Of a stretch of 64,000 nucleotides of DNA, positions 6,395-61,146 are shown in pieces. The DNA is taken from NCBI GenBank assembly GCA_040756875.1, contig JBFLYH010000002.1:446644-510643 (forward strand), written 5' to 3'. The notes under the pieces are model-generated. The model did no database searches. It saw nothing but the letters and a program-made list of their open reading frames with translations, and was not told the origin of the DNA. This DNA is from a candidate division FCPU426 bacterium (lineage in GTDB: Bacteria > Oederibacteriota > JAAXVQ01 > JAUVAV01). The translations under genes and the position numbers were made by a program. Position 1 is the stretch's first letter, and every line of letters starts with the position of its first letter.

Positions 6395-6395
6395 G

Positions 6396-26510: not shown

Positions 26511-26577
26511 GGCTGCTGATTGCGGGCATGGTAATAGCCCTGAATGCCTTACTCTTTTCCGGGAAAGCACGGTTTTC

Positions 26578-44905: not shown

Positions 44906-47044
44906 TCATTCCCCGAAAGAGCTGCCTTCTGGTCCCGACCCCACGTGGAATTCCGGGAAAGCCTTTAAATTAAGGCCGAAACCGACGTCATAATGCCCGT
45001 CGGCATACACTTTCAGCCCGGTTTGCATCTCCCAGCAATGCAGGTCGTGCGAAAGGGTCAGGGAATAATTGGTGAATTTTTTTTGCAGCACTTCGAATTG
45101 CAGGCCGGTTTGCAGCGAGATTCCCACCCCGGGCCGCACGCCGGCGGTCAGCATGGCAAACCAGGAATGTTCGCGGCCGGTTTGGCCGATATACGAATAG
45201 GAATTGTTCAAAGCCACATTCCACGCGCTCTGGGCCATGCTGGCGGAAACATACCCCGAGGTGATGCGCTCCTTGAGCCAGTCATGGGTCCCCTGCCAGT
45301 TCAGGGAAACGCCGGAGCCCAGACTGGCATTGCCGCTGAAATTGAGGGCTTCCAGGTGGTCCCGCCAATCCGGCGATTCCTCAAACAGGAAGAATTTATA
45401 GCCCGTACTGCCGCGCAGCACGAAAAAAGTGCCCATAAAATAATCCAGACTCAGGCCCATGCGGTTGGACGTGACGCCGGCGGCTGCCAGCGAGCGGTTG
45501 CCCTCCAGGGAGAACTGCCGGCTGAAGTCGTGGGACAGGCGGCTTTCGACCAGGTGCGTGGGTTTGGTGTAGCGGTAATTCACCCATTTGTTGGTCAGGG
45601 TCAGGTTGGTCGTGTACCCGCCGTCGATCTGGGTTTGGGGCGAGGTTTGATCGCTGGTGTGGTCGGAAAAGACGATTTCCTTGTACGTGCCGGTCAGGGG
45701 CAGGGAGAGCGAGCCCGACAGGCTGGGCTGCGTGGGAACACGCACGGGGAAAGTGTAGGTTTCGGTCAGTCCGGGCGTCAGCCTGAAGCTGTCCACATAA
45801 CGGTCGCGGATGTCGCCGCTGGGAATCACGGTCACGCGCTGGTAGGTGCGGTTCAGCCCGGCGCTCAGGTTCAAATAGAGCGGCTGCACCAGGCTGAACA
45901 GTTTTTGCGGCGTAAGGGAAACAGAAGCGGTCGGCAGTTCACGGCTTTGGGTGTAATAAGTTCCCAGCAGCGGATCCCAATACTCCACGTCGCTGGCATT
46001 CAGGCTCCAATAGAAAATGTCGCCCCGGTGCGAATAGGCCAGGTAGGATTTCTGCTGGAACGAGTCCACCACGTCCGCCGAAAATTCCCGGTTGAACGCC
46101 TGGTCCGAAAGGTAATCCAGGTTGAGCTGCATCTGGTCCCGCTCGCTGAATTCATGGCGGTTGTCCACGTGGGCGGTCCAGCGTTCGGTCCCGAGCTCCT
46201 TGTCCCGCACGTAATAGACCGACAGATCCCCCGCCCCCTTGCCCAGGGCCTCGTAGCCGAGGTGGTGCTCCACGCCCCAGCCCAGGCCTTTGCGCTCCAT
46301 AAGGTCGAGCAGCAGGCCGCCGTAGTTTTCCTTGCCCAGATAATAATTGAAGCGCAGGCGCGCGTACCAGCCTTCAAAATCGTTGTACCCCACGCGGATG
46401 GAAAAAGGCGGCCGGCTGTCCTTGAGCGAGCGCTGGATCCAGGGCAGGTAAAAGACCGGGGTGGTGCCCACGTACAAAACCGCGTGGTGGGCCGTGAGGG
46501 ATTCGCCCAGCACCACGTCGATCCGGCTGGCCGTGAGATGATAATGGGGATGGCGGGCGTCGCAGGTGGTGAACAGGGCGTGGTTGATGGCCACTTCCTT
46601 CTCGCCGTGTTTTTCGACGGACTCGCCCTGGTAATACCAGGGCCGGGTGGCGAAGCGGATGCCCCGCGCGGCGGCCGACTGGCTCTGCAAATCGTAGTCG
46701 AGTTCTGCACAGTGGATGGTCCGGTCGGTTTCAGTCAGCGTGACATTGCCGCGAGCTTCGATCCGGCGGGTGGCGAGGTCCGCCTGCGCCGCGTCGGCGG
46801 TGAGCGTCAGGTTGGAATACCAGATGCGGACCGAGCCGCGCGCTTCCATGCGTCCCGTGTCCTCGGCATAGCTGAGCCAATCCGCGGCCACGCTCACCCG
46901 CTGGCCGGCCGTGGTATTGGGCGCGGCCTCGGGCACAGGCGCAGCCGCCCGGGCGGAAGCGCCCAGGAGCCAGAATGCCGTAACAAAAAAAAGCAGGGGC
47001 GCGCCGTATGCTTGCACGCCCCTGCCGATGGTCTGCATTCTCAT
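44906..47044 (-). CDS. lptD: LPS-assembly outer-membrane protein LptD (OstA-like N-domain plus beta-barrel)
   Basis: Signal-peptide-like start MRMQTIGRGVQAYGAPLLFFVTAFWLLGASARAAAP, then OstA-like beta-jellyroll repeats, then a large barrel with a C-terminal aromatic residue (...FGE, not terminal F). Confidence 0.65.
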   Translation of the reverse strand: MRMQTIGRGVQAYGAPLLFFVTAFWLLGASARAAAPVPEAAPNTTAGQRVSVAADWLSYAEDTGRMEARGSVRIWYSNLTLTADAAQADLATRRIEARGNVTLTETDRTIHCAELDYDLQSQSAAARGIRFATRPWYYQGESVEKHGEKEVAINHALFTTCDARHPHYHLTASRIDVVLGESLTAHHAVLYVGTTPVFYLPWIQRSLKDSRPPFSIRVGYNDFEGWYARLRFNYYLGKENYGGLLLDLMERKGLGWGVEHHLGYEALGKGAGDLSVYYVRDKELGTERWTAHVDNRHEFSERDQMQLNLDYLSDQAFNREFSADVVDSFQQKSYLAYSHRGDIFYWSLNASDVEYWDPLLGTYYTQSRELPTASVSLTPQKLFSLVQPLYLNLSAGLNRTYQRVTVIPSGDIRDRYVDSFRLTPGLTETYTFPVRVPTQPSLSGSLSLPLTGTYKEIVFSDHTSDQTSPQTQIDGGYTTNLTLTNKWVNYRYTKPTHLVESRLSHDFSRQFSLEGNRSLAAAGVTSNRMGLSLDYFMGTFFVLRGSTGYKFFLFEESPDWRDHLEALNFSGNASLGSGVSLNWQGTHDWLKERITSGYVSASMAQSAWNVALNNSYSYIGQTGREHSWFAMLTAGVRPGVGISLQTGLQFEVLQKKFTNYSLTLSHDLHCWEMQTGLKVYADGHYDVGFGLNLKAFPEFHVGSGPEGSSFGE

Positions 47045-47066
47045 CACCCTGCCTTGCGGGCGGGAC

Positions 47067-48170
47067 TCACACAATCGTTTGTTCGGTTTCTTTGTCGAAG
47101 AAATGGGCTTTGCTCATGTCAAGGACGAGATCCATGTCCTGATTGACTTCCAACTGCTCGTACGTGTCCATGCGCGCGATAAAGGGCGTTTTGCCGGTCG
47201 TGAGATAGATGAAGGCGTCCCAGCCCATGGGTTCCACCACTTCCACGGTGGCGGTGATCGTGTTTTCCGGCGACGCGGGATAATACACCTTGTCGTAGAT
47301 GTTTTCCGGCCGGATGCCCATGACCAGTTCCTTGCCCACCAAGTCCTCCAGGGCAGCCGCATGGTCGTCGTGAATCTTGACCGTGAAATTTTCCTCCGAA
47401 AAATACAACACGTCCTTTTTCTTGATGATCGTGCCTTCCATGAAATTCATGGGCGGCGACCCGATGAAACTGGCTACGAACTTGTTGCTGGGCTGGTCGT
47501 ACAGGGTGATGGGGTCGGCGATTTGCTGGATCAGGCCGTCCCGCATGACCACGATCCGGTCGCCCATGGTCATGGCTTCCACCTGGTCGTGCGTCACGTA
47601 GATCATGGTCGCCTGCAGGCGGGTGTGCAGCTTGCCGATCTCGCCGCGCATCTGCACGCGCAGTTTGGCGTCGAGGTTGGAGAGCGGTTCGTCGAAGAGA
47701 AACACCTTGGGATTGCGCACGATCGCGCGCCCCAGGGCCACGCGCTGGCGCTCGCCGCCGGCCAGGGACTTGGGCCGGGAGTCCAGCAGCCGCGTAATGC
47801 TCAGCGTTTCAGCGGCCTCCAAGACGCGGCGTTTGATCTCGTCCTTGGGGAGCTTCTTCAATTTGAGCCCGAAGGCCATGTTCTCATATACGGTCATGTG
47901 CGGATACAGGGCATAGTTCTGGAAAACCATGGCAATATCGCGGTCTTTGGGCGGAAGGTCGTTGACGACTTTGTCGTCGATCAGAATATCGCCGCTGGTG
48001 GCTTCCTCCAGCCCGGCGATCAGGCGCAGGGTGGTGGACTTGCCGCAGCCCGAAGGCCCGACCAGAACGATGAATTCCTTGTCTTCGCAGGTTAAATTGA
48101 CGTTTTGAACGGCATCCCGGTCTTTGCCGGGGAAATGCTTGCGGACATTTTTAAGGACAACCCGTGCCAA
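47067..48170 (-). CDS. ABC transporter ATP-binding protein, MalK/UgpC/MsmK-like (carbohydrate importer ATPase with C-terminal TOBE domain)
   Basis: Walker [10 protein letters not shown], signature [11 protein letters not shown], Walker [13 protein letters not shown]. No permease or SBP genes are adjacent. Confidence 0.75.
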
Positions 48171-48286: not shown

Positions 48287-49711
48287 TCATATTTTTCCAA
48301 GCCTTTTCCGCTCCCTTTGCAGGGCGGCAGCGACCCGGTTGGGCGCGGTCCCGCCCCAGGAACGCTTGGCCGCCACGGAGCGCCGGAGCCCGACTTCCCC
48401 GAGCACGCCAGGCTGAAAAGCCGGGTGAAAGGCCCGCCAACGCTCCAGGGGGATGGATTCCAGGGGAATGTCGGCCTCGCTGGCCCAGGTGACCAGGCGT
48501 CCGACCGCTTCATGGGCCTGCCGGAACGGCACGCCCTGGCGGACCAAATGGTCGGCCGCTTCGGTGGCGGTCGGGAATCCCAGGCTGCAGGCCTGTTCGA
48601 GGCGCTCGCGGTTGAAACGCAGAGTGTCCAGCATGGGGCAAAGAACCAGCAGGGTTTCATCCAGAATGTCCGCGGCCTCAAACACCACCACTTTGTCTTC
48701 CTGCAAATCCCGGTTGTACGTCAGCGGCAGGCCCTTCAGCACGGTCAGCAATGTGACCAGGCAGCCGTTTAAGCGGCTGCTGCGGCCGCGGATCAGTTCA
48801 GCCACGTCCGGGTTGCGCTTCTGGGGCATGATGGAAGACCCGGTGGCGAACCGCTGGGACAGGGTGATAAAGCGGAACTCGTGGCTGGAAAACAGCACCA
48901 GCTCCTCGGCCAGGCGCGAGAGATGCACCCCGCAGATCGCGGCCGCAGACAAAAATTCCAGGGCGAAATCGCGGTCCGCGACCGTGTCCAGCGAATTGTC
49001 CGTCACGCGGGCGAAACCCAGCAGGCGCGCCGTGAACTGCCGGTCAATGGGATGGCTGGTGCCGGCCAGGGCCGCCGCGCCCAGAGGCAAATCCTCCAGG
49101 CTGCCCTGCCGCAACTCCCACAGCCGGCGCTCATCCCGGGCAAACGCCTCGAGATGGGCCAGCAGCCAGTGCGCCACCAGCACCGGCTGGGCGGTCTGCA
49201 GGTGCGTGTATCCGGGCATGATCCAGTCCCGGTGCTTTTCCGCCAGGCGCAGGAGCGAACGCTGCAGGAGCCGCAGGGCGCCGGCGAGGTGCTCGGTTTC
49301 CCCTCGCAGGTACAGTTTGAAATCCAGGGCCACCTGGTCGTTGCGCGAACGCGCGGTGTGGACCTTGCCAGCCACGGGGCCGATCAATTCATGCAAGCGC
49401 CTCTCCACCAGCATGTGCACGTCCTCGTCCGAAGGCTTGTGCGCCAGTTTGCCCTGCTCCCATTCGTGCAGCACGGCGCGCAGGCCGCCCTGGATTTTCC
49501 GCGCTTCGGCCAGGGACAGGATTTTGCATTTGGCCAGCATCTCCACGTGCGCCAGACTTCCCGCAATGTCCGCGGGCAGCAGCCGCCAATCCACCTCCAG
49601 CGAGGCGGTGTACGCTTCGGCGCGCGGGTCCGGCGCTTCGGTGAAACGTCCGGCCCAGGCTTTATGCGGGGCCTTTGCGGCAGATGGCTTGCGGCGTTTG
49701 CGTGCGGGCAT
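48287..49711 (-). CDS. argH: Argininosuccinate lyase
   Basis: ...GSSIMPQKRNPD... fumarate-lyase signature. 474 aa. Confidence 0.85.
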   Translation of the reverse strand: MPARKRRKPSAAKAPHKAWAGRFTEAPDPRAEAYTASLEVDWRLLPADIAGSLAHVEMLAKCKILSLAEARKIQGGLRAVLHEWEQGKLAHKPSDEDVHMLVERRLHELIGPVAGKVHTARSRNDQVALDFKLYLRGETEHLAGALRLLQRSLLRLAEKHRDWIMPGYTHLQTAQPVLVAHWLLAHLEAFARDERRLWELRQGSLEDLPLGAAALAGTSHPIDRQFTARLLGFARVTDNSLDTVADRDFALEFLSAAAICGVHLSRLAEELVLFSSHEFRFITLSQRFATGSSIMPQKRNPDVAELIRGRSSRLNGCLVTLLTVLKGLPLTYNRDLQEDKVVVFEAADILDETLLVLCPMLDTLRFNRERLEQACSLGFPTATEAADHLVRQGVPFRQAHEAVGRLVTWASEADIPLESIPLERWRAFHPAFQPGVLGEVGLRRSVAAKRSWGGTAPNRVAAALQRERKRLGKI

Positions 49712-49737: not shown

Positions 49738-50967
49738 TCAGGCTTTTTTGCGCTGCTTGCCCGATTTGCTTCTCAGCTGCGCCTGCACCTTCAGGGGCAG
49801 GCCGTAGAGGTTGATGAAACCCGTGGCGTCTGATTGGCGGTAAACGTCATCCCGGCTGAAGGTGGCCAGTGCCTCCGAGAACAAGGAGTTGGGCGAACGC
49901 CGGCCCAGAGCCGCGGTTTGCCCGCGGTAAAGCTGCATGCGCACTTCGCCCGTGGCCGCGGACATCACCTGGTTCATGAAAGCATCCAGGGCTTCGCGCA
50001 GAGGCGTGAACCACTGGCCATAGTAGACCATTTCCGCGTATTTCAACGCCAACTGGCTGCGGAAATGCATGGTTTCCCGGTCCAGCACCAGGCTGGCCAG
50101 TTCGTGCAGGGCCGCCACCAGTACCGTGCCAGCCGGCGTTTCGTACGCCCCGCGCGATTTCATGCCCACCAGGCGGTTCTCCACCAGGTCCGTGCGGCCC
50201 ACGCCATGGCGGCCGGCTTGGATGTTGAGGGTCTGGATCAGCTTGACCAGGTCCAGTTTGCGGCCGTTCAGGCTGACGGGCACGCCGGCGTCGAAACCAA
50301 TAGTCACTTCCTCGGGTTCGGCCGGCGCTTGTTTGGGGTCCTGGGTCAGCATCCACACTTCGGAACTCGGGGCCTGCCAGGGATCTTCCAACTCGCCGCC
50401 CTCGTGCGAAATGTGCCAAAGATTGCGGTCGCGCGAATAGATCTTCTTCAAAGACTGGGAGACCGGCACGTGATGGGCCTCGGCGTAAGCCAGGGCGTCC
50501 TCGCGCGAACGCAGGGTCCACTTCGGGTCTCGCCAGGGCGCGATGACCGTCAACTGAGGGGCCAAGGCCTGGTAGGTCAGCTCGAAACGCACCTGGTCAT
50601 TGCCCTTGCCTGTGCAGCCGTGCGCCACGGCGTCGGCTTTTTCCTTAAGCGCGATTTCCACCTGGTGCCTGGCGATCAAAGGCCGGGCGATGGACGTTCC
50701 CAGCAGGTATTTGTTTTCGTACACCGCTCCGGACTTCAACAGCGGGGCGAGATAGTCTTCGGCGAACTCCTTTTTCAAATCCAAAACATAGCACTTGGAA
50801 GCGCCGGTCTGTTTGGCCTTGGCCGGCAAACCGTCCAGTTCCTCCTCCTGGCCGATATCCGCCGCGAACGCAATCACTTCGCAATTGTAATTCTCTTTAA
50901 GCCAGGGAATGATCACCGAGGTGTCCAAACCCCCGGAATACGCCAGAACGACTTTCTTGATGGCCAT
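49738..50967 (-). CDS. argG: Argininosuccinate synthase
   Basis: Start [20 protein letters not shown]... with the ...[15 protein letters not shown]... motif. Confidence 0.85.
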
Positions 50968-51231
50968 GGAAGTAGGCTCCATATAAGATTTGATATTAAA
51001 ACATCTTGATTCAAGACTTATTTTCTATATCTGATTAATGATAGCGGAAGCTATGTGGGAATGCTACTTCATTTTTAAACTGCTTTTCCCGAAGAACTCT
51101 GGTGGCTTCGGTTCTTTACAAAACGCCTTAATTCTGCCAGGGGGCTGAAAAACACTCATGACAACAGCTAGTTATACACATCTTTTCATAATCAGAACAT
51201 ATCATTGCCTATTATAACTTTTCGGATATTT

Positions 51232-52689
51232 TCATTTATCAGCAGATTCCGCCGCAAGAGAATAAACCATTAAGGCTTTATCACCCGAACCGACTTCCAG
51301 AACGCAGGTAGACACAATACCTGGAATCGTCCGAAAGGTTTTATCTTGAGCATTCGTAAGTACTAACCATGCCTTCAAAAGATCTTGCCTTGCCCGGGTT
51401 TTAACCACATCATTCAATACCCAGACCGAATCGCCGTCTCGATTTCGTTGGTCGAAGTAACCTGACCGAACATAAACATGGTCGCTCGATGGTTCTAAAT
51501 AATAAGCCAAACAACCTCGTTCAATCAAATCAACAACTAATACTTTGGATGATTCCTCCATGTGCTCGCGTAAATAATTCGCCACCGTTTTATAATCTTG
51601 TTTGGAATATTGGCTCGGCTGCAAATGATATTGATAAACCGGGAATAGCAGTATTCCAACCACCATGACATTTTTTAACCACTTTGGCCCCGGTATCAAT
51701 TCCAATAAAATTGAAGTCCCATATCCCACTACCAAGAGATATATCGGCAATAAAAATATAGTATTACGCGTGGTTACAATCTGAGCATGCGAAGTTATTA
51801 AAAACAGAGATACAAGCATGATCACAAATGCGCTTGCCAGAACCACAAGTTTGTGGTTCTTATGTATTATTGCCATGATTGTACCCAGCAAAAACAAAAG
51901 CGCAAACCCGTAATACCACCCATTAAAAAAACCTATGGAACTATATTGGGAAAGTAGCACAGAAAAAAACAGCGGCAAGAAAGGCATTCCGTATCCCGGG
52001 GTATGCTCCGCGTGGCGAAATTGGTTTAGAAGCAATGGTACCCAAGGGCTAAATATCAGCAGAGAAATGCCCGCATTAACTACCGCTTGAGGTATTTTCC
52101 AGGAAGTGATTTTAACGTTTTTATATCTCCATAGCCAATAGAGGCCTTCGATAACCATAACAAACATTCCAAAATAATGCGTAAGCAGGAGGAGTCCATT
52201 AACTGCTCCCAACCCTATTGCCCAGGGCCAGCTTTGTTCTTCACACCATCGGACAGTCAAATATAAACTAACCAATGACAACAAAAGAAACAGCGAATAC
52301 ATTCTGGCTTCTTGTGAGTAAGCTATGGCCATCGGGGATAAGGTAAAATACATCGTGGGCACCCAAGCCTGTGTTTTGCCAATAAAATAGCGCGCCAATA
52401 AATAAAACACAGGGATGGATAGAATCCCATAAATGGCCGCTGGCAGGCGGACAATCCAGTCCGCTTTCCCAAACACAAGAAAAAATTTCAGCAGGATATA
52501 ATCCAACGGCGGCGAAAGGTGGGTTCCAACGATGCGAAACAGATCATGCCAAGAGGAAGAAGCAGTAATAACCTGGCCAATCTCATCCAGCCAGAGGGAT
52601 TGATGACCTAAATGGTACAAACGGACAATACTTCCTAAAATGACTATAATTAGAAGCGGATTATTTTCTCTGATGTTATTTAGTGTCAT
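51232..52689 (-). CDS. GT39/ArnT-like (PMT_2) GT-C glycosyltransferase, low-GC
   Basis: ...SLWLDEIGQV..., polytopic, 485 aa. The local region is about 42-45% GC. Confidence 0.6.
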   Translation of the reverse strand: MTLNNIRENNPLLIIVILGSIVRLYHLGHQSLWLDEIGQVITASSSWHDLFRIVGTHLSPPLDYILLKFFLVFGKADWIVRLPAAIYGILSIPVFYLLARYFIGKTQAWVPTMYFTLSPMAIAYSQEARMYSLFLLLSLVSLYLTVRWCEEQSWPWAIGLGAVNGLLLLTHYFGMFVMVIEGLYWLWRYKNVKITSWKIPQAVVNAGISLLIFSPWVPLLLNQFRHAEHTPGYGMPFLPLFFSVLLSQYSSIGFFNGWYYGFALLFLLGTIMAIIHKNHKLVVLASAFVIMLVSLFLITSHAQIVTTRNTIFLLPIYLLVVGYGTSILLELIPGPKWLKNVMVVGILLFPVYQYHLQPSQYSKQDYKTVANYLREHMEESSKVLVVDLIERGCLAYYLEPSSDHVYVRSGYFDQRNRDGDSVWVLNDVVKTRARQDLLKAWLVLTNAQDKTFRTIPGIVSTCVLEVGSGDKALMVYSLAAESADK

Positions 52690-52707
52690 TATTAATCAGT
52701 ATTATGT

Positions 52708-53496
52708 TTATTTTATTTTCATAATCCAAATAATCGTCATATTTTTAGGTCTAGTTTCAGTACCTCCCGTTGTTCCAATTATATACGAATTCCAAGTTAT
52801 TGTATGATCAGTAAGAGTATTTGAGATAGGATACTGCCCGCCTCCCGAACCAGCGTCTAACGCTATTGCATGGTTATGAGCTTTAAGGTCATCTGCTTGC
52901 AATACACCCGAAGAAGAACCGCCACGCAAAAATCTTCCTTGATTGTTGAGGTCCGGAATTATTTGTCCATCAAAAACACTTTCCGGATCACTCAGTGTCT
53001 GGCCATTGCATTCCACCCACTGCGAAGAGAGGGTCGGGGCGCCAGGGGGCATGTTTTTATGCCAGGCGATGATACTGCCAATCGGCACATCATAATTCAA
53101 AACAAACGGCACACCGTTGAGCGGCTGGCGGGGTAACATTTCATTATCCGATCCCACCTGCACTCCCAACCAGTACTGATTGCTGAAATCCACATTTTTA
53201 GATAAAAGTGGAGTAGTTACGCCCAGTCGCACGTTGAAATATCCGTTCTTCACTTCCACATTGGTTAAGCTTTCGCTCCATTTGGCCGAGCCAACCAAGG
53301 CATTTGGATCGTCATACAGCCTGAAAGTAATGACATAATTGCCATCTGTCACCGGATTGCCTAGACTGTTGGTCAATCTTCCCTGATAATTAATCGTTCT
53401 TGATGCGGGCGTGGCAAAAACTGTCGAGCAGATCAAGAATAATGAAAGCAACCCCAGTAGTGCTTGCTTTTTCATTTTATTCCTCCCTCTTTTCAT
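52708..53496 (-). CDS. Secreted phage-tail-collar-domain protein (MdpB-like)
   Basis: Signal peptide MKKQALLGLLSLFLICSTVFA. C-terminal region ...IIAWHKNMPPGAP...WVECNGQTL...FDGQIIPDLNNQGRFLRGG...ETRPKNMTIIWIMKIK matches the tail-collar fold consensus. ATGA overlap with the upstream gene. Confidence 0.6.
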   Translation of the reverse strand: MKRGRNKMKKQALLGLLSLFLICSTVFATPASRTINYQGRLTNSLGNPVTDGNYVITFRLYDDPNALVGSAKWSESLTNVEVKNGYFNVRLGVTTPLLSKNVDFSNQYWLGVQVGSDNEMLPRQPLNGVPFVLNYDVPIGSIIAWHKNMPPGAPTLSSQWVECNGQTLSDPESVFDGQIIPDLNNQGRFLRGGSSSGVLQADDLKAHNHAIALDAGSGGGQYPISNTLTDHTITWNSYIIGTTGGTETRPKNMTIIWIMKIK

Positions 53497-54071
53497 TTCA
53501 CCAACGCTATTTTTTTAGACAGCGTGGTTGTTTTTCCTGCTTCAGACTTGGCCTTTATCCATAATAAATAAACGCCATTGGCAATATTGGACGTATCCCA
53601 GGTCCAGCTATTTGAACCCAAGGGTAAACTAGCCCAATGCTGAGAAATCACCAGATCCCCATTGACTGTAAATACTTTCAATTCCACCTCAGCCCGCATG
53701 GCCAAATCAAAATGGATGGTGCCGCGTTTGCCCCGGATAGGGTTAGGTGCGGCATAGACATAGTCCGCGCATATCACTTCTCCTCCGAATGAGCGGATGG
53801 GAGTTGGGGTTACAGTTGGAGTCGGCGCGGGTAAAAAATAGTCATTAAAATATCCGGCCTGAACTGAATAGCGCCCACTCCAGCTTTGGCCTACCAATGA
53901 TTCCCCGCTAGAATCGAACAGATAGATTCCTGAAGATTCCTGGGTATTGCCTGTACTACTGACTTGCATTTGATTGAGCTGGTAATTGGCCGATGATTGA
54001 GCTGCCTCGAGCGGACTGCTGGCAAAGATTATTAAAATAACCGCCAGCCACATTTTCGCAAGCGTCTTCAT
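53493..54071 (-). CDS. Secreted protein with C-terminal T9SS-type (Por_Secre_tail / FlgD-Ig-like) sorting domain
   Basis: Signal peptide MKTLAKMWLAVILIIFASSPLEA. C-terminus ...PNPIRGKRGTIHFDLAMRAEVELKVFTVNGDLVIS...ANGVYLLWIKAKSEAGKTTTLSKKIALVK. Confidence 0.5.
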   Translation of the reverse strand: MKTLAKMWLAVILIIFASSPLEAAQSSANYQLNQMQVSSTGNTQESSGIYLFDSSGESLVGQSWSGRYSVQAGYFNDYFLPAPTPTVTPTPIRSFGGEVICADYVYAAPNPIRGKRGTIHFDLAMRAEVELKVFTVNGDLVISQHWASLPLGSNSWTWDTSNIANGVYLLWIKAKSEAGKTTTLSKKIALVK

Positions 54072-54107
54072 TTTATATCCCCCTTAAACCGGGTGATTTT
54101 ATCATTA

Positions 54108-55877
54108 CTAGAAAGCAATACCTACATTAACACCGACGCCGGGATAAGTAAGCGATACCGATAGCGACGATTTAATATCCATATCAGGGCCTTTTATACT
54201 GCCATTGGTTGCGGTTAGATTGTACAAACCCAGATATGGGGACAACACAAACCAATCATTTTTGCCTAATAATATTTTATATCCCACTTCTGCTCCAATG
54301 GTCAGAACGGTAGCTTTCATCGTCGCTAGTTCTTCATTGAATAGGCTCCCACCTAGCTCCCCTAACTGGTATTTGATTATTGGTCCCATCCAAAAGCCAG
54401 AATACTTCTTACCATCATGCGGTAAATAATATCTCCCCGAAAGACCGGCACCATATATTAAATTACTATATGAAGAAACACCGTTGCTTCCGCTCCTAAT
54501 AGTCAACAGACCTTTTACTGCCGCCGAGAATTCAGAAGTTAATGCTCTTTCATATTCCAATTCCAAGGAAATACCCGACCAATTACTGAAAGAGAATAAT
54601 CCAAGCGGATTTATTGTCAGGGCATTGGGTTTTTCCAAAGATTCCATATGTGATTTTAAAACAGGCCCGGATTTCAGCTCGGTTTCTGTTTTTACCTCTG
54701 GTTTGGCAGGTGTCGCTTTTTCGGATGTAATCTGCGCCATGATCACAGGCGTCGCGTCTGCGGTTTTTTGCGTTGGCTCTGGAGTCGGCGTCTGGGTCGG
54801 CTCTGGGGTTGCAGGAGTTGGCTGGGGAGTGGGTGCGGGCGTGGCCGGAGTTGGAATAGGTGTAGGTGCCGGAGTCATTGGTTCTTCTGACGTCGAGGCT
54901 ATTTCCGTCGGCACAAGCTGACGCAGCGTCCCGCTTCCTTCTCCGGGAATGCGCAGCATCAGGGAAACGCGATGCTGATGCGCCTGCAGTTCGCCGGGAT
55001 CGTAGCGGAAAGCGTAATCCACTTCGTAATATTCCGAACTATAGGAGGCGCCGGCAGTGATGCCCTGGCCGTCATACCCCAGTCTGGCAGCCAAGTTCTG
55101 TATAAACCAATACTCGGCTCCCAACCGAAAATTAAACCGGGAGTATTCGGAAAATTCGATATCCAGGGCTGTAACCAAGTGGTTAAAGTACATCCTGTCC
55201 TGGGATGGAAAGAATTTCAGCGACGTACCGAGTTTGACATTGAGCGGAGTGAAATCCATGCTGTTTTCCGCCACATTCCAATACAACCGCTGAAAGACAT
55301 TTTGCACGTTCAGACCAATAGTATGGTCCAAGTACAATACCGGCTGCCATAAAGCGCCGATATCCAAACCATGGCCAACCGCTGTAAATCCGTCCATTCC
55401 TTGGTGGAGATATTTTAAACTGGCACCCAGCGAAAGGCCCTTGACCCACTCGAAGGTTTTACGTCCATAACTGAGAAAAATGGCATTTTCCGCATTGATA
55501 AAAGTCCCGGCTACTAGGCCGTTTTCATCGCGTTTTTCGATCTCGCCGCTATTGAAATTGATCCAACCTAATTCCAAGTTGCCCACTTCAGGCCATTGAA
55601 ATGCATACGAGAGATAACTGGAACTCATTTGATTAGACAATACGGCATACTGCGATCCGACTTCATACATATATAAATCCATTTGCGCTAAACCTGCCGG
55701 GTTCCAATAACCAGCAGTTGCGTCATCAGCCAAAGCCACGAACGCACCGCCCATTCCTAATGCCCTGGCGCCTACGCCTTGCCGCAAGTAAACGCTACTG
55801 CCGTAATTATTGCCATCCGACCACGCTGAAATCGGAAGTAAAACCAAGGCTATTGCCAACCATGGCATTCTTTTCAT
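54108..55877 (-). CDS. Outer-membrane beta-barrel protein of the FadL/TodX/PorV-like family, with a Pro/Thr-rich insertion
   Basis: Start MKRMPWLAIALVLLPISAWS with GGAGGGGAAGG SD. The N-terminal ...GARALGMGGAFVALADDATAGYWNPAGLA... matches the FadL/PorV N-terminal signature. Central PTPIPTPATPAPTPQPTPATPEPTQTPTPEPTQ linker. Terminal aromatic ...VGIAF. Confidence 0.5.
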   Translation of the reverse strand: MKRMPWLAIALVLLPISAWSDGNNYGSSVYLRQGVGARALGMGGAFVALADDATAGYWNPAGLAQMDLYMYEVGSQYAVLSNQMSSSYLSYAFQWPEVGNLELGWINFNSGEIEKRDENGLVAGTFINAENAIFLSYGRKTFEWVKGLSLGASLKYLHQGMDGFTAVGHGLDIGALWQPVLYLDHTIGLNVQNVFQRLYWNVAENSMDFTPLNVKLGTSLKFFPSQDRMYFNHLVTALDIEFSEYSRFNFRLGAEYWFIQNLAARLGYDGQGITAGASYSSEYYEVDYAFRYDPGELQAHQHRVSLMLRIPGEGSGTLRQLVPTEIASTSEEPMTPAPTPIPTPATPAPTPQPTPATPEPTQTPTPEPTQKTADATPVIMAQITSEKATPAKPEVKTETELKSGPVLKSHMESLEKPNALTINPLGLFSFSNWSGISLELEYERALTSEFSAAVKGLLTIRSGSNGVSSYSNLIYGAGLSGRYYLPHDGKKYSGFWMGPIIKYQLGELGGSLFNEELATMKATVLTIGAEVGYKILLGKNDWFVLSPYLGLYNLTATNGSIKGPDMDIKSSLSVSLTYPGVGVNVGIAF

Positions 55878-55958
55878 CTTGCCTTCCCCTCCGGGATATT
55901 TGTTCTTTTTATATTTAGACTGACAAGACAAAATTTCATTGCACCTTTTATTTATAAA

Positions 55959-56669
55959 TTAGTCCCACAACCCATAGCGCAGGATGCAGTAGAGGGCGCG
56001 GAAGGCGTCCTTGGCCCCGATCTTTTTGCCTTCCTGGTAGGTGCGGCCGTGGTAGGTGATGCCCACCTCGTAGAAGCGCAGGCCCCGGCGGGCGAACTTC
56101 AAGGTGATCTCGGGTTCAAAGCCGAAGCGGTTTTCCTTGAGGGTCACGCCCGTCAGGGCGTCCCGGCGGAAAGCCTTGTAGCACACTTCCATGTCCGTCA
56201 GATTGAGGTTGGAAAAAAGGTTGCACAGGGTGGTGAGAAAGCGGTTGACCAGCGCGTGCCAGAAAAACAGCACGCGGCGCGGCTTAGTGGTGAGCAGACG
56301 GCTGCCGTAAACCACGTCCGCCACCCCGCGCACCAGCGGTTCGAGCAATTCGGGGTAATCGGCCGGATCGTATTCCAGATCGGCATCCTGGACCAAAATC
56401 ACTTCCTGCCGCGCCTGCTTGAAGCCCTCCCGCAAGGCCGCACCCTTGCCTTGATTCCGCGGCTGCCTGAAAACGCGCAGATCCCGGCCCTTCAGCTTGG
56501 CCAGGATGGCGGGCGTGCGGTCCGTGGAGGCGTCGTCCACCACGATGATTTCTTTGGCCAGGGGCACGGCCCGAACGCGGCGGATCAGCTCGGCCACTGT
56601 CTGTTCTTCGTTATAGACGGGAATGACGACGGAAATCGCCGGAAAACGCAGGCGGCCGGAGGCGGGCAT
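55959..56669 (-). CDS. GT2 polyprenyl-phosphate glycosyltransferase (DPM1-like)
   Basis: ...ISVVIPVYNEEQTV...IIVVDDASTDRT...VQDADLEYDP... 236 aa, high GC. Confidence 0.7.
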   Translation of the reverse strand: MPASGRLRFPAISVVIPVYNEEQTVAELIRRVRAVPLAKEIIVVDDASTDRTPAILAKLKGRDLRVFRQPRNQGKGAALREGFKQARQEVILVQDADLEYDPADYPELLEPLVRGVADVVYGSRLLTTKPRRVLFFWHALVNRFLTTLCNLFSNLNLTDMEVCYKAFRRDALTGVTLKENRFGFEPEITLKFARRGLRFYEVGITYHGRTYQEGKKIGAKDAFRALYCILRYGLWD

Positions 56670-56671: not shown

Positions 56672-57637
56672 CTAGCCTTTCCGCTCCATGAGGAGCTTGA
56701 GAATAGCCTTTTGCACGTGCAGGCGGTTTTCGGCCTGGTCAAAGACAATGGACTGCCGCCCCTCGATGACTTCCTCGGTCACTTCCTGGCCGCGATGGGC
56801 GGGCAGGCAGTGCAGAAACACCGCGCCCGGCGCGGTGTGGGCCATGAGCTTCTCGTTGACCTGGTACTTTCTCAACGCCTTGAGCCGCTGCGCCTGTTCT
56901 TTTTCCTGGCCCATGGACACCCATACGTCGGTGTATACGGCGTCCACCTGCGTGGCCGCCTGCACCGGGTCCTGGGTTAGGCGCAAGGTGCCGCCGCTGC
57001 GCTTGCGGTCTGCTTCGCTCAGCTCGACCGTGTGCCGGTCGATTTCAAACCCCATGGGCGAGGCCAGGGTCAGGTCCATGCCGGTTTTGGCCGCACCGTA
57101 AATGAGGGAACGGGCCACGTTGTTGCCGTCGCCGATGTAGGCCAGGCGCAGATGCTTGAGCCGCCCGAAGCGTTCCCGCAGGGTGAGCAGGTCGCTGAGG
57201 ATCTGGCAGGGATGGGAATAATCGGTCAGGGCGTTGATCACCGGCACCGCGGCGTGTTTGGCCATTTCCACCACTTTTTCGTGGGCGTCGGTGCGGATCA
57301 TGATGCCGTTCACGTAGCGCGAAAGCACGCGGGCCGTGTCCGCGATGGTCTCGCCGCGGCCGAGCTGCAAATCGCGCCCGGCCAGGTAAAACATGGCGCC
57401 GCCCAGCTGGTACATGGCCGCCTCGAAGGAGACGCGGGTCCGGGTTGAGCTTTTTTCGAAGATGCCGGCCAGGATCTGCCCCTGCAGGCTGCGGTCGCTC
57501 CGGCCCCGGCGGAAGGCCGCCTTGAGCTGCTCGGCCGTGGCCAGGATCAATTCGATGTCCCGGGGCGTGAGCTGCGCCATGGTCAGCAGGTTTTCCACGG
57601 ATAGTTTTGAAGTTTTGTTTTTTTTCTTCGCGGTCAT
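56672..57637 (-). CDS. argF: Ornithine carbamoyltransferase
   Basis: ...STRTRVSFE...HCLPAHRG... 321 aa. Confidence 0.85.
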   Translation of the reverse strand: MTAKKKNKTSKLSVENLLTMAQLTPRDIELILATAEQLKAAFRRGRSDRSLQGQILAGIFEKSSTRTRVSFEAAMYQLGGAMFYLAGRDLQLGRGETIADTARVLSRYVNGIMIRTDAHEKVVEMAKHAAVPVINALTDYSHPCQILSDLLTLRERFGRLKHLRLAYIGDGNNVARSLIYGAAKTGMDLTLASPMGFEIDRHTVELSEADRKRSGGTLRLTQDPVQAATQVDAVYTDVWVSMGQEKEQAQRLKALRKYQVNEKLMAHTAPGAVFLHCLPAHRGQEVTEEVIEGRQSIVFDQAENRLHVQKAILKLLMERKG

Positions 57638-57654: not shown

Positions 57655-58863
57655 TTAACCCAGCTGCGCCAGCACGCGGCGCAAAATGGATACAGCTTCC
57701 TCGATTTCAGCCTGGCTGACGATCAAGGCCGGCAGAAAACGCAGAACGTTGACGGCCGTGCAATTGACGACCAACCCGGCTGCGAGCGCCAGGCGGACCG
57801 CCTCGGCGCCCGGCTTTTTCAGCTCCAGGCCATGCATCAACCCCGCGCCCCGGTGCGCAGCCACCAGCGCCGGAAACTCCCTGGCCACCTGGTCCAGCTG
57901 TTCGCCGAGGTATTGCCCGGCCTGCCGCACATTTACCAGCCAGCCGGGCTTGGCCAGCTGTTCCAGCAGCACGCAGCCGCCGGCCGCGGCCACAGGGTTG
58001 CCGCCAAAGGTGGTGCCGTGGTCGCCGGTTTTCATGGCCGCGGCCACGTCCGTCCGGGTCACGAGCGCGGACAACGGCAGCCCGCCGCCCAGGGGTTTGC
58101 CCAGAAGCAGCACGTCCGGCGTCACGCCGAAATGCTCGTAGGCGTGGAAATGCCCGATGCGGCCCAGTCCGCACTGGATCTCGTCAAAGATCAGCAGCAG
58201 CTTGCGTTCGTCGCACCAGGCCCTGAGCCCCCGCAGGTATTCCATATCCAGGGGCCGGATGCCGCCTTCGCCCTGGATGGGTTCCACCAGCACTGCGCTG
58301 GTCGCCGCGGAAGTGGCGGCCTTGATTTTTTCCAGGTCATTGGCCGGCACGTGTTTGAAGCCGGGCAGCATAGGCTCCAGGCCTTCGTGGTACTTGGGCT
58401 GGCCCGTGGCGGTCAGGGCCGCAAAGGTCCGGCCGTGAAAAGAGCCTTCCAGGCAGATGATTTCATATTTCTGCGCTCCGTTTTTCCGGCCCCATTTGCG
58501 CGCCAGCTTGACGGCCAGCTCCACGATTTCAGCGCCGCTGTTGGCGAAAAACACCCGCTCGCCGAAGCTATGCCGGACCAGCAGGTTGGCCAGCCGGATC
58601 TGCGGTTCCAAATAATACAGGTTGCCGCTGTGCGCCAGCCGTTCCAGCTGCGCTCGCATGGCTGCCAGCTGTTCCGGATGGCCGTACCCCAGGTTCATTA
58701 CCGCGTGCCCCGAGAAAAAATCCAGGTACGTTTTGCCTTCGCGGTCAACCAAACGGCACCCCTGGCCCTGTTCCCAGACCACGGGCTGGCGCTGGAAAGT
58801 CTGAGCCAGTACTCTTGACTCAAGCTGCATGATGGCGGCGGTGTCGGGCTGAAGCGGGTTCAT
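57655..58863 (-). CDS. argD: Acetylornithine aminotransferase (class III PLP aminotransferase)
   Basis: Start MNPLQPDTAAIMQ with GGAGGA SD. Carries ...LIFDEIQCGLGRIG... The annotated ATG at 58995 adds a low-complexity extension that overlaps argB. Confidence 0.8.
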   Translation of the reverse strand: MNPLQPDTAAIMQLESRVLAQTFQRQPVVWEQGQGCRLVDREGKTYLDFFSGHAVMNLGYGHPEQLAAMRAQLERLAHSGNLYYLEPQIRLANLLVRHSFGERVFFANSGAEIVELAVKLARKWGRKNGAQKYEIICLEGSFHGRTFAALTATGQPKYHEGLEPMLPGFKHVPANDLEKIKAATSAATSAVLVEPIQGEGGIRPLDMEYLRGLRAWCDERKLLLIFDEIQCGLGRIGHFHAYEHFGVTPDVLLLGKPLGGGLPLSALVTRTDVAAAMKTGDHGTTFGGNPVAAAGGCVLLEQLAKPGWLVNVRQAGQYLGEQLDQVAREFPALVAAHRGAGLMHGLELKKPGAEAVRLALAAGLVVNCTAVNVLRFLPALIVSQAEIEEAVSILRRVLAQLG

Positions 58864-59735
58864 GCCGGTTCCTCCGACCGGCGCAGCTCCGTGCCAATGC
58901 CCCGGTCCGTGAAAAGTTCCAACAGCAGGGCGTGGGACACCTTGCCGTTGATGATGTGCGCCTTGTGCACGCCGCCTTGCAGCGCCCGAGTGCAAGCCTG
59001 GACCTTGGGCAGCATGCCGCCCTTGATCACGCCGCTCTTGACGAGCCCCTCCACCTCGGCCAGGGGCAGGCTGGAGATCAGCGAGGCCGGATCCGCCGGG
59101 TCGCGCAGAATGCCCGGCACGTCCGTGAGCAGGATGAACTTGTCGGCCGACAGCGACCCGGCGATGGCTGCAGCCACGTCGTCGGCGTTGATGTTGTAGG
59201 TCTGCCCCGCGTCATCCACGCCCACCGGGGCGATGACGGGGATGAATTTTTCCCGGTCCAGCGCGTGGATCACGTCCGGCCGCACCTGCTTGATTTCGCC
59301 CACGAACCCCAGGTCCACCTGCTGGTGCGCCAGCTTGCGCACCTTGAGCAGGCCGCCGTCCTTGCCCGAGAGGCCCACGGCCAGGCCGCCGTGCCGGTTG
59401 ATCGCCGCCACGATTTCCTGGTTGAGCTTGCCGACCAGGACCATTTCGATCACTTCCATGCTGGCGGCGTCGGTGACGCGGCGGCCGTCCACGAATTCCG
59501 ACTTGCGGCCCATCTGCTCCAGCACCCGCGTGATCTCCGGGCCGCCGCCGTGCACCACCACGGGCTTCATGCCCACGTATTTCATGAGCACCAGGTCCTG
59601 CATGACCTCGTCCTTCAGGTGGTCGTCCACCATGGCGGCGCCCCCGTACTTTACCACCACGGTCTGGCCGTAGAAGGCCTTGATGTACGGCAGGGCCTCG
59701 ATCAGGATCTTGGCTTTGGCAATCAGGGTTTCCAT
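58860..59735 (-). CDS. argB: Acetylglutamate kinase
   Basis: ...VVKYGGAAM...VVVHGGGPEI... 291 aa. ATGA overlap with argD. Confidence 0.85.
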   Translation of the reverse strand: METLIAKAKILIEALPYIKAFYGQTVVVKYGGAAMVDDHLKDEVMQDLVLMKYVGMKPVVVHGGGPEITRVLEQMGRKSEFVDGRRVTDAASMEVIEMVLVGKLNQEIVAAINRHGGLAVGLSGKDGGLLKVRKLAHQQVDLGFVGEIKQVRPDVIHALDREKFIPVIAPVGVDDAGQTYNINADDVAAAIAGSLSADKFILLTDVPGILRDPADPASLISSLPLAEVEGLVKSGVIKGGMLPKVQACTRALQGGVHKAHIINGKVSHALLLELFTDRGIGTELRRSEEPA

Positions 59736-59757
59736 GGGTATGCTCCCGGCGTTTCCC

Positions 59758-61146
59758 TTACAGAATGTAGCGGTTGAAATCCTGCTCTTTCAGCAGGTCA
59801 CCGATGCGCTCGCGCACGTATTCGGGCGTGACCACCACTTTATTGCCCGGCATTTCCGGGGCGCTGAAGCTCACTTCCTCCAGCACGCGCTCCATGACGG
59901 TGTGCAGGCGCCGCGCGCCGATGTCCTCGCCCAGCTGGTTGGCGCGGTAGGCCAGCGACGCCATCTCCGCAACGGCTTCGGGCGTAAACTCCAGGGTCAC
60001 CCCGTCCGTGGCCAGCAAGGCCTGGTACTGCTTGGTCAGGGCCTGGCGCGGCTCCTGCAAAATACGCTGAAAGTCCTCGGCGCTCAGCGACGAGAGCTCG
60101 GCGCGCAGCGGAAAACGCCCCTGCAGCTCCGGGATCAAATCCGAAGGCTTGGAGACGTGAAACGCGCCCGCCGCGATGAACAGGATGTGGTGCGTGCGGA
60201 TTTCGCCGTGGCGGGTGTTTACGGTCGTGCCTTCCACGATGGGCAGCAAATCCCGCTGCACGCCCTCGCGGGACACGTCCGGCCCGCGCCCCTGTTCCCG
60301 GCCGGCGATTTTATCCAGTTCGTCGATGAAGACGATGCCCATCTCCTCCACGCGGCGGACCGCCTCGGACTTGATCTCGCCCATGTCCACCAGCCGCCCC
60401 AGTTCCTCCTGCACGAGCAGGCGCCGGGCCTCCGACACCTTGACCCGCCGGCGGCGCGACTGGCCCATGCCCCCGGGCATCGCGTTCTGCAGCATGTCCT
60501 GGAGGTTCATGCCGATTTCTTCCATGTTGGTGCCGGAGAAAATCTCAACCATGGGCATGGGCGTCTCCTTGGCCTCCCATTCCACGGTTTCCTCTTCGAG
60601 CAGCCCGTCCCGAAGCTCGGTCCGGACTTTTTCGCGCGCCTCGCGGTGGCGCAGCACGCGCGCCTCCCCCTCCTCGGGCGTGCCTTCGCGGCGCTTGGCC
60701 AGGGGCGGCACCAGCAGGTCGAGCAGCCGCTCCGCGGCCAGCTCCTCGGCGCGCGGCCGGAGTTTGGCGTAGCGCTCCTCCCGCACCAGGTTGACCGCCT
60801 GGTGCGCCAGGTCGCGGATCATGGACTCCACGTCGCGCCCCACGTACCCGACTTCCGTGTATTTGGAGGCCTCCACCTTCACGAAGGGCGCCTGCTCAAG
60901 GGCCGCCAGCCGGCGGGCGATTTCGGTCTTGCCCACGCCCGTGGGCCCGATGAGCAGGATGTTCTTGGGCGTCACTTCGTCGCGCATGTCATCGCCCAGC
61001 CGGCGCCGCCGCAGGCGGTTGCGCAGGGCAATGGCCACGATGCGCTTGGCCTGGTGCTGTCCGACGATGTACTTGTCCAGTTCCGCCACAATTTGCCGCG
61101 GCGTGAGGTCCGGTTCCGCGGTTTCGGCCGGAAGCGGCTTGCTCAT
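59758..61146 (-). CDS. hslU: ATP-dependent protease ATPase subunit HslU
   Basis: ...[31 protein letters not shown]...[18 protein letters not shown]... 462 aa. Confidence 0.9.

Follow-up and report, generated by a model that had tools for sequence, protein, structure and literature searches.

Low-GC, hypervariable surface loci situated between housekeeping genes are familiar from the O-antigen rfb clusters, and e14 and phage 21 at icd of Escherichia coli are known cases of elements that enter a protein-coding gene at its 3′ end and duplicate that end. Two-step glycosylation by way of a polyprenyl-phosphate-sugar is carried out by enzyme pairs such as ArnC/ArnT, GtrB/GtrC, Ppm1/Pmt and those of the AglJ type. 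In the T9SS (type IX secretion system) of Porphyromonas gingivalis, retained C-terminal domains (CTDs) tether surface proteins non-covalently to barrels, PorU to PorV and PorZ to PorQ (PMC5562754), and in the mosaic adhesive trimer (MAT) proteins of Bdellovibrio an N-terminal domain (N-domain) presumably binds a surface element that has not been identified, the family as a whole showing 'tip swapping' (PMC10769870). Here we analyze a stretch of 64,000 nucleotides from a candidate division FCPU426 bacterium (GenBank assembly GCA_040756875.1, contig JBFLYH010000002.1, positions 446,644 to 510,643; hereafter the window), in which a low-GC island at 50983–55958 lies within an arginine-biosynthesis operon, between argF and argG. 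The island encodes a PorV/PorQ-family outer-membrane barrel, a small secreted protein with a T9SS sorting domain (the adaptor), a chimeric short fibre protein with a phage tail-collar tip, and a PMT_2-type membrane glycosyltransferase. The explanation that we favor, and hold to be probable though well short of certain, joins a history to a function: an old, inherited insertion at a hotspot downstream of argF, and a cassette for mounting fibres on the cell surface. The history is well supported, and the function is inferred from homology and gene linkage.

The GC content of the island is 0.443, that of the remainder of the window 0.626, and the lowest 5-kb window outside the island reaches 0.543, so that the dip reported in an earlier reading made by a model from the letters alone (the sequence-only reading) persists on calculation. 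The four island genes have GC contents at third codon positions (GC3) of 0.42–0.48, the four lowest among approximately 52 open reading frames (ORFs) of the window, as compared with 0.77–0.91 for argH, argG, the neighboring GT2 glycosyltransferase gene, argF, argD, argB, hslU and hslV. Tetranucleotide usage, normalized for base composition, also makes the island an outlier (r = 0.61 against the rest of the window, other 5-kb windows giving 0.93 ± 0.03; z about −12), and its edges are sharp, with the GC shift completed within about 100 nt at the start of argG and at the GT2 stop. Island, GT2 and arg genes are all co-directional on the minus strand, in the order xerC-like, hslV, hslU, argB, argD, argF, GT2, PorV-like barrel, sorting-domain protein, tail-collar protein, PMT_2, spacer, argG, argH.

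No tRNA was found in the 64-kb window, no integrase or transposase inside the island (as the sequence-only reading had remarked), no flanking direct repeats of about 25 nt or longer, and no remnants of ArgF, GT2 or ArgG inside the island. The repeats or tRNA fragments that had been suggested as a thing to look for at the boundaries are thus absent from the window junctions, and a tRNA- or repeat-flanked integrative element is ruled out there; the xerC-like gene (61780–62643) is part of a conserved xerC-hslVU synteny. Measured by the usual marks of a genomic island, the locus has the atypical composition and codon usage and lacks mobility genes, repeats and an adjacent tRNA; nor is it absent from the same site in close relatives, one of which (the sister described below) carries three core genes at the same junctions. 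An assembly chimera is ruled out, since the sister's NCBI assembly has these junctions too, as do contigs from three further sequencing runs. A Logan contig matches the window at 100% over 15,130 nt and, because this identity indicates that it probably derives from the same sample, lends no independent support. Composition alone does not date the insertion, because low GC goes with the gene family: the GC3 of the module lies below that of its neighbors in every genome examined.

The sister genome, GCA_964630235.1 (locus L083), carries xerC-hslVU-argBDF-GT2, followed by a barrel gene (590 aa), a sorting-domain protein gene (190 aa), a collar protein gene (265 aa), and argG-argH. Flank proteins are 81–93% identical between the two genomes (ArgH 86%, ArgG 93%, GT2 89%, ArgD 81%, ArgB 90%) and the three shared island proteins 63–73%. 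Both junctions can be aligned, namely the AT-rich, 81-nt spacer between GT2 and the barrel gene (55878–55958, minus strand), which includes the Shine-Dalgarno sequence and has 83% column identity when the end of GT2 is counted, and a block of about 45 nt upstream of argG. Alignable junctions therefore point to one ancestral event. The horizontal acquisition claimed by the sequence-only reading consequently stands as an insertion and falls as a recent or private one. That reading had proposed to abandon its claim if related genomes showed the same genes in place with genome-typical codon usage; the genes are in place in the sister, yet their codon usage is atypical there as well (GC3 0.54–0.59, and 0.46 for an AbiEii-like gene, against flanks of 0.86–0.91). 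In the window, the copies of the three shared genes have a GC3 of 0.45–0.48.

The two islands differ in their fourth slot and in the distal parts of their proteins. Where the window has PMT_2, the sister has a gene of 60 aa together with an AbiEii-like nucleotidyltransferase gene of 183 aa on the opposite strand (L083 10845–11571), probably a toxin-antitoxin pair. An MNT/HEPN-like pair also adjoins the module of another locus, L172, and toxin-antitoxin genes thus accompany cassettes at both. As to a defence system, no island protein has a PADLOC match, and just the replacement gene of the sister is weakly AbiEii-like. Residues 1–360 of the barrel protein are 81% identical to the sister's and residues 361–589, comprising the linker and C-terminal domain, 35%; the first 170 alignment columns of the fibre are 77% identical (72–95% in sliding windows over columns 21–160), and its residues 181–255, with a GC3 of 0.28, only 25–40%. 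Overall, the C-terminal segments are 15–42% identical, and it is in the variable segments that the GC3 of the window is lowest (0.28–0.40). Composition-corrected divergence at four-fold sites is 0.29–0.71 in nine flank genes and 1.1–1.7 in the island genes, their conserved segments included, which would fit weaker codon constraint and continuing compositional drift as well as it would fit alleles that predate the species split. Raw dN/dS is low; as dS is saturated, it shows purifying selection and no more.

Elsewhere the arginine genes do form one block, as the sequence-only reading had supposed. We compared 66 species-representative loci in which at least 2.5 kb lay past argF; argG follows directly in 23 (12–588 nt between matches), lies 1.0–1.7 kb away in two, and is not downstream in 41. 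The complete order hslU-argB-argD-argF-argG-argH occurs in three loci of other lineages (Syntrophobacteraceae, a deltaproteobacterium and Binatia), with xerC and hslV upstream in two of the three (xerC-hslVU-arg in L038 and L076, hslU-arg in L067); these loci are the flanks of the window joined. The 5.7-kb interruption in the window is larger than any gap in the comparison set. A GT2 gene was found between argF and argG in none of the 66 loci, nor in any of 80 loci other than that of the window. In a metagenome scan, GT2 homologs were 52–60% identical and none lay beside an arg operon, although one locus had a distant class-III aminotransferase match about 2.3 kb off, and GT2 for this reason failed as a marker of empty sites. 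Because the block is contiguous elsewhere without GT2, both GT2 and the low-GC island interrupt it, the GT2 gene of native GC being the older interruption.

The 16S rRNA cluster FCPU426 is equated in the literature with the phylum Goldbacteria (PMC7031533), and the closest species representative for ArgF is a metagenome-assembled genome of Candidatus Goldiibacteriota, at 69% identity. ArgF identities define three clades, made up of the window with the sister, L173 with L003, and L257, with 69–75% identity between clades. Surface modules follow argF in the window, the sister, L173 and L257. Behind argF in L173 come a 204-aa gene and a GT4 gene, next the gene of a PorV-like barrel that belongs to the same subfamily as the window barrel (48% identical), and then genes for a sorting-domain protein of 625 aa, for three proteins with Collar domains and for a sorting-domain protein with a beta-helix. 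In L003, whose ArgF is 86% identical to that of L173, a 205-aa gene is present and the module absent; the three core island genes are missing from L003 and from the loci of other phyla. Since related modules occupy the site in three clades of the phylum, the position downstream of argF appears as a long-lived hotspot or variable locus. The proposal that a module had been inserted into a housekeeping operon is thereby borne out as far as the interruption goes, and not in its implication of a single, one-off hit.

In L257 (GCA_964593065.1), the genes after argF are those of an adaptor homolog (54%) and of a fibre that shares the N-domain (52%), then one of low GC for a 594-aa membrane protein, and then a 41-aa ORF, a remnant that duplicates the ArgF C-terminus. 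A 91-nt direct repeat, 94.5% identical, formed by the argF 3′ end (5145–5235) and the remnant (8887–8976), brackets the 3.65-kb insert. This is the kind of scar left by an incoming circle that carries a copy of the target 3′ end, and it therefore points to a Campbell-type or site-specific insertion that rebuilds the end of the target gene. Past the remnant lie more genes of very low GC (one of 368 aa, GC3 0.23, with a weak SIR2_2 match). The second cassette of the sister, at L175, has two nested repeat pairs: an inner one of 117 nt (9496–9612 and 11297–11413), whose two copies, one of them the 3′ end of a neighboring PilZ gene, flank a GT-C gene, and an outer one of 100 nt (6892–6991 and 12716–12815). 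Taken together, these repeats suggest that insertion with duplication of about 100 nt of a target 3′ end may be recurrent in the lineage. Neither the window nor the sister's arg locus has a 3′-end duplication scar, and no integrase was found in any cassette copy examined.

Related cassettes occur at other genomic sites, so the coherent set of surface and secreted genes perceived in the sequence-only reading is indeed a unit. Locus L170 has the barrel, a 182-aa adaptor and a 284-aa fibre in the order of the window, inside an O-antigen-like cluster with Wzm/Wzt; L172 has adaptor, fibre, a 621-aa PMT_2 and barrel, beside its toxin-antitoxin pair; L175 has an adaptor (47%), a fibre with the same N-domain and an unrelated tip, a PMT_2 (40% identical to that of the window) and a second GT-C; and L087 and L088 have an adaptor with one or two fibres, one of the two loci lying within a glycan cluster. 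Adaptor and fibre genes are adjacent in all eight independent loci, a PorV-like gene adjoins them in four, and a GT-C-type membrane protein adjoins them in four as well, this being PMT_2 in the window, L172 and L175 and the unclassified 594-aa protein, which has no Pfam match, in L257. O-antigen-like clusters enclose the module in two other genomes, and that of the window borders a 47-kb glycan region. All of the linkage loci were retrieved through homology to window proteins, and in a scan of 2.9 Mb of fetched loci the N-domain was found solely in such homology-retrieved loci. No donor lineage can be named, the closest homologs being about 40% identical for PMT_2, 48% for the full-length barrel in the wide search and about 50% for the collar protein (65% for the sister's collar). 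At a further locus (L125, metagenome contig Ga0256835_1001418), an unrelated GT2 homolog (53%) lies about 500 nt from a weak PorV-like match at 6165–6422 on the opposite strand (34% over about 85 residues, E 3e-8), which may be a second GT2–PorV-like linkage.

Pfam and NCBIfam models confirmed every domain that had been called for the island genes from the letters. The barrel gene (54108–55877, minus strand) encodes a protein that scores 131.8 bits over residues 31–308 with the PorV/PorQ family model NF033709 (cutoff 90). It consists of a 14-strand barrel (approximately 54933–55790), a Pro/Thr-rich linker (approximately 54588–54932) and a hypervariable C-terminal part (approximately 54111–54587). 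Its AlphaFold2 (AF2) model has 14 long strands at residues 70–311, with a predicted local distance difference test score (pLDDT) above 90, consistent with a FadL-like fold, and PorV chains, taken from solved complexes of the T9SS translocon, are its best Foldseek matches in the PDB (8gl6_F and 6h3i_F; E 3.5e-11 and 6.3e-10, TM 0.63–0.64), ahead of TbuX, FadL and TodX; the description of the protein as FadL/PorV-like thus proved apt. The C-terminal domain is possibly a small 8-strand beta-barrel ending in Phe. The subfamily is tight, with members 47–58% identical and a drop to about 33% for generic members of the family.

The adaptor (53493–54071, minus strand; 192 aa) has a signal peptide, an N-domain of about 50 aa, a Thr/Pro linker and a T9SS type A CTD, an architecture that is conserved, linker included, in the family alignment. 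Its residues 108–177 exceed the cutoffs of both TIGR04183 (27.3 bits, cutoff 23) and PF18962 (30.3 bits, cutoff 27), in line with the earlier call of a T9SS-CTD-tagged secreted protein, and the sorting-domain model is matched by 7/7 members of the family. The best solved-structure match of the family profile is the C-terminal domain of PorU (6za2, E 0.0011), and four of the seven members match PorU and PorZ C-termini. Other proteins with the same sorting domain occur in related genomes. The adaptor N-terminus was also considered as PamT, the pilus tip of the candidate phyla radiation, with which three of the seven members gave matches (31 bits, cutoff 240) that lie partly over the signal peptide; we keep this as a lead only. 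A tail-fibre-like protein consistently co-localizes with the pam operon (bioRxiv 10.64898/2026.03.03.709456), a parallel that is suggestive and not established.

The fibre protein (52708–53475, minus strand) comprises a signal peptide, a MAT-like N-domain (residues 22–126; 53098–53412) and a phage tail-collar tip (residues 127–255; 52711–53097). The sequence-only reading had seen a secreted tail-collar protein here, which is right for the signal peptide and the tip and not for the whole, a chimera with a widespread cellular N-domain. This N-domain scores 34.3 bits (E 1.8e-8) against Bdello_MAT_N (NF053851), and 45 of 50 members of the fibre family match the same model at E ≤ 1e-3 (best 1.9e-10), which argues for homology at the superfamily level rather than for membership, the cutoff being 60 bits. 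The N-domain family has 24,238 cluster representatives at E ≤ 1e-3; among the 150 best of these 24,238, the domain nearly always sits at residues 22–125 or so, right after the signal peptide, in proteins of 120–1,730 aa. The domain (about 105 aa) has no Pfam match in the copy searched, and apart from the NCBIfam entry, which is specific to Bdellovibrio, the family appears to lack a general model. IMG/VR, 50,697 phage genomes and 72,556 plasmids contain no copy of the domain, and the adaptor is likewise absent from IMG/VR, those phage genomes and plasmids. The AF2 pLDDT of the fibre is 96–98 in the N-domain, and no solved-structure homolog was significant by sequence or Foldseek (best E 0.013). 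The tip matches the PHROG tail collar fibre family at 3e-9 and Pfam Collar (PF07484) at 17.3 bits, under the cutoff of 24; its identity to viral ORF C-termini, whose terminal motif it shares, reaches 46%, and that to annotated phage tail fibres is 30–34%, with tail-collar or tail-fibre matches in 67 phage genomes. Tips differ among the window, the sister's arg locus, L175 and L257. The protein, modelled as a monomer, would at 255 aa have no room for a long shaft.

The variable fourth slot of the window (51232–52689, minus strand) holds PMT_2, a GT39-type GT-C membrane glycosyltransferase (PF13231, 56.2 bits, cutoff 26.1) for which NCBI gives the name 'glycosyltransferase family 39 protein', as had been recognized from the letters. 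It is the island gene of lowest GC (GC3 0.42), and its nearest homologs are about 40–41% identical. We considered it as a duplicate of other GT-C genes in the window or as an ortholog of the L172 PMT_2 and found no significant pairwise similarity to either. Further PMT/PMT_2-type GT-C genes of the window, at 16236–17819 and 26440–28116, are not close paralogs of it. The GT2 of native GC (55959–56669, minus strand; GC3 0.82), which starts 2 nt past the argF stop, belongs to PF00535 (130.8 bits) and reaches the cutoff of no equivalog model (AglJ 124 bits, cutoff 325; ArnC, PpgS and dolichyl-P-hexose transferase 61–68 bits); it also has a GtrB-like PHROG match at 1e-27. It resembles, and is predicted to be of the type of, polyprenyl-phosphate-sugar synthases, and is probably the functional partner of the island GT-C.

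Cumulatively, the history that we propose begins in an ancestor of the FCPU426/Goldbacteria-related lineage, in which a contiguous xerC-hslVU-argBDFGH block was broken just after argF. At that place lies GT2, by now native in composition, and after it the low-GC surface cassette, which has passed down vertically since before the split of window and sister; its fourth slot was exchanged, and its exposed C-terminal segments were diversified or swapped. In the function that we propose, the 14-strand PorV/PorQ-family barrel would sit in the outer membrane; the type A CTD of the adaptor would dock on it and be retained, as PorU and PorZ CTDs are on PorV and PorQ; and the N-domain of the adaptor, or the barrel itself, would hold the MAT-like N-domain of the fibre, whose phage-derived collar tip would bind an external ligand, be it a glycan or the surface of another cell. 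GT2 would make a polyprenyl-phosphate sugar, which PMT_2 would transfer in the periplasm to the Thr/Pro linkers of adaptor and barrel.

Several observations weigh against this account. The barrel falls far below the cutoffs of the PorV (NF033710; 57.1 bits, cutoff 250) and PorQ (NF033711; 71.3 bits, cutoff 220) models, its C-terminal domain is poorly modelled (low pLDDT) with weak OMP_b-brl similarity (E 0.013), and no T9SS core domains were found in the scanned ORFs of this 64-kb part of the genome. The likenesses of adaptor and fibre to PamT and the MAT N-domain lie under the curated cutoffs, and the protein-protein contacts of the fibre model are drawn from homology and gene linkage. The linkage count is not an unbiased sample, its loci having been found by homology to window proteins. 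The fibre has a Sec signal peptide and no sorting domain that would take it across the outer membrane. PMT_2 genes of different cassettes are not orthologous, and the sister's arg locus has none; glycosylation is therefore not obligatory. As to the history, the window and the sister are without a scar, and the mechanism read from L257 is extrapolated to both, while the higher synonymous divergence of the island could be a matter of weaker codon constraint and not of replaced alleles.

Four other explanations have to be set beside the old insertion with a surface-fibre cassette. A recent, lineage-private horizontal acquisition would account for the strongly atypical GC, GC3 and tetranucleotides, and for PMT_2, the island's gene of lowest GC, with homologs of about 41% identity at most and no counterpart at the sister's arg locus; with the sister having three of the four genes at junctions that align with those of the window, between flanks of 81–93% identity, with conserved barrel and fibre parts that are 77–81% identical, and with no mobility genes, repeats or tRNA in the window, we judge it improbable for the island as a whole. 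PMT_2 alone, because of its low GC, distant homologs and absence from the sister's arg locus, may be a later arrival. Closer to our own account is a hypervariable surface locus subject to repeated allelic replacement by recombination in the flanks, in which alleles would be older than the species split and carry the composition of a donor pool. Divergence at four-fold sites two to four times as high as in the flanks, also within segments of about 80% identity, GC3 that differs between the copies, the exchanged fourth slot, the low identity and lowest GC3 of the C-terminal segments, lowered GC in every host, and a position adjoining or inside glycan clusters are all as such a process would leave them. 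The junction spacers are nonetheless alignable and the conserved parts near flank identity, as simple vertical descent would predict, and a flank GC3 of about 0.9 may itself constrain synonymous change and inflate the contrast. We therefore consider allelic replacement rather unlikely as the whole story, although it overlaps with the inherited insertion and remains a live refinement of it.

The phage-like tip raises the question of a degraded prophage or tailocin remnant after argF, the more so as the 3′-end duplication in L257 is typical of phage integration and toxin-antitoxin genes lie beside the sister and L172 modules. Phage-likeness, however, is confined to the tip, the last 125 or so residues of one protein; there is no other structural or replicative PHROG match, the N-domain and the adaptor are absent from the viral and plasmid collections, and a compact unit recurs across genomes, all of which makes a prophage origin very unlikely. 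Equally hard to sustain, in our estimate, is the idea that barrel and adaptor are housekeeping T9SS genes of odd composition, a true PorV/PorQ with its cargo, and that the fibre and the GT-C are unrelated neighbors. Both proteins pass the family or sorting-domain models, and the same sorting domain is found on other proteins in relatives, but the barrel is far under the equivalog cutoffs, has an extra linker and C-terminal domain, the locus varies between sister species, and the tight barrel subfamily co-occurs with fibre and adaptor, whose adjacency holds at 8/8 loci.

The AT-rich spacer between PMT_2 and argG (50968–51231, minus strand; GC 0.31–0.44) is partly alignable with the sister. An AT-rich gap of 249 bp had been noted here; the AT-richness is confirmed, and the length is 249 nt with the argG start at 50982 or 264 nt with a start at 50967, the latter being the gene call on the Logan contig and aligning with the argG start of the sister. 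The conserved block of about 45 nt, at approximately 51033–51079 on the minus strand (66–112 nt upstream of argG), contains TGAAgtagcATTC, with TGAActggaATTa as its sister counterpart; we take it to resemble a half-palindrome of the ArgR ARG box, and it may be a candidate argGH operator or promoter. The spacer as a whole is probably the argGH promoter or regulatory region, and argGH would be expressed from it and/or by read-through. An RNA element, riboswitch or terminator was considered for the gap and rejected: no Rfam family matched even at E ≤ 1, the RNA fold was no better than shuffles (z = −1.1), and a consensus scan for promoters and terminators gave nothing compelling.

The native flanks, all on the minus strand, are argH (argininosuccinate lyase, 48287–49711; Lyase_1 and ASL_C2; GC3 0.81) and argG (argininosuccinate synthase, 409 aa when read from the 50967 start, as in the recorded product, 49738–50967; Arginosuc_synth and Arginosuc_syn_C) just downstream of the island, and argF (ornithine carbamoyltransferase, 56672–57637; OTCace and OTCace_N), argD and argB (57655–59735; Aminotran_3 and AA_kinase), and hslU, hslV and the xerC-like recombinase gene (59758–62643; Pfam families on Logan-contig gene calls) upstream. 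Only 22 nt (59736–59757) separate hslU from argB, and the order xerC-hslV-hslU-argB recurs in distant phyla, which suggests that hslVU may be co-transcribed with the arg genes. On the other side, the arg operon directly borders an envelope-glycan biosynthesis region at 1–47 kb of the window. It contains Wzx-type flippase genes (8066–9748 and 30955–32415), a Wzy/O-antigen-ligase-like gene (10233–11549), an initiating sugar transferase gene (11599–12990), many GT4 and GT2 genes, genes for NDP-sugar epimerases and dehydratases, and a UDP-glucose dehydrogenase gene (43497–44786). Between the latter and a MalK-like ABC ATPase gene (47067–48170) lies a gene (44906–47074) for a 722-aa protein that has no Pfam family and is kept in the sister (701 aa). 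Low-GC patches within the region (21096–22103 and 23946–26491; GC 0.44–0.54, GC3 0.51–0.64) hold the genes of a methyltransferase, of a DUF4330 protein and of a protein of 628 aa without a Pfam match, so that in this genome low GC goes more widely with surface-related genes.

Genomic islands in operons are common, and the island as such is ordinary. What interest the locus holds, which we would rate as moderate, lies in what the cassette combines, namely a barrel of the PorV family, an adaptor with a sorting domain, a chimeric MAT-like fibre whose tip is of phage type, and a GT-C, together with its tie to a very large and mostly uncharacterized N-domain family and the 3′-end scars in relatives. 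The linkage of barrel and adaptor gives a candidate anchor for the MAT N-domain, a point left open by the Bdellovibrio MAT paper. The fibre is a clear case of a cellular protein with a phage tail-fibre tip, and a conserved mount with a hypervariable tip suggests that cells use the tip-swapping strategy of phages. The argF 3′ end, as a long-lived landing pad in a candidate phylum with a scar in one member, offers a handle on the spread of integrase-less cassettes in uncultured lineages. More tentatively, and as a speculation that we would not press, barrel and adaptor could be the surface socket for fibres with MAT-like N-domains at large (the 24,238 representatives), the docking of CTDs having been co-opted as a mount for exchangeable phage-derived tips and the unit moving as an integrase-less, low-GC cassette into gene 3′ ends with duplication of about 100 nt.

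Compared with the T9SS pairs PorU-PorV and PorZ-PorQ, the locus is alike in that a 14-strand barrel of the PorV/PorQ family is encoded beside a protein with a type A sorting domain. It differs in that the barrel is no equivalog and is extended by a Pro/Thr linker and, C-terminally, by a barrel-like domain; that its partner, of 192 aa, lacks any enzymatic domain; that a phage-like fibre and a GT-C accompany these genes within a low-GC, variable cassette; and that the host lies outside the Bacteroidota. With the MAT proteins of Bdellovibrio bacteriovorus, the fibre shares the succession of a signal peptide, a beta-rich N-domain that is conserved and a C-terminal tip that varies and is phage-like; unlike them, it lies under the curated cutoff and, at 255 aa, would lack a long shaft and has no S74 chaperone domain, and a linkage to a sorting-domain adaptor and a PorV-like barrel is not reported for MATs in PMC10769870. 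Like phage tail-collar tips, the last 125 or so residues of the fibre are homologous to tail-fibre C-termini and end in the same terminal motif, but they are part of a gene on a cellular chromosome, they are joined to an N-domain of non-viral kind, and the neighborhood holds no other phage genes.

In its glycosyltransferases the locus recalls the ArnC/ArnT-type pairs, a small GT2 being encoded beside a GT-C that would draw on a donor of this sort at the outer face of the inner membrane, and the Thr/Pro-rich linkers in the neighboring secreted proteins resemble targets of Pmt-type O-glycosylation. Unlike such pairs, the GT2 reaches no equivalog cutoff, it is native where the GT-C looks foreign, and the sister's arg locus has the GT2 without the GT-C. 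As an insertion, the locus is unlike both the rfb loci and e14 or phage 21 in that its content is a display of protein fibres and not a sugar pathway, no integrase was found in the copies examined, and the window is scarless. It is like e14 and phage 21 at icd in the 91-nt duplicate of the target 3′ end found in L257, and like the O-antigen rfb loci in its fixed position, low GC, content that varies among close relatives, and surface function.

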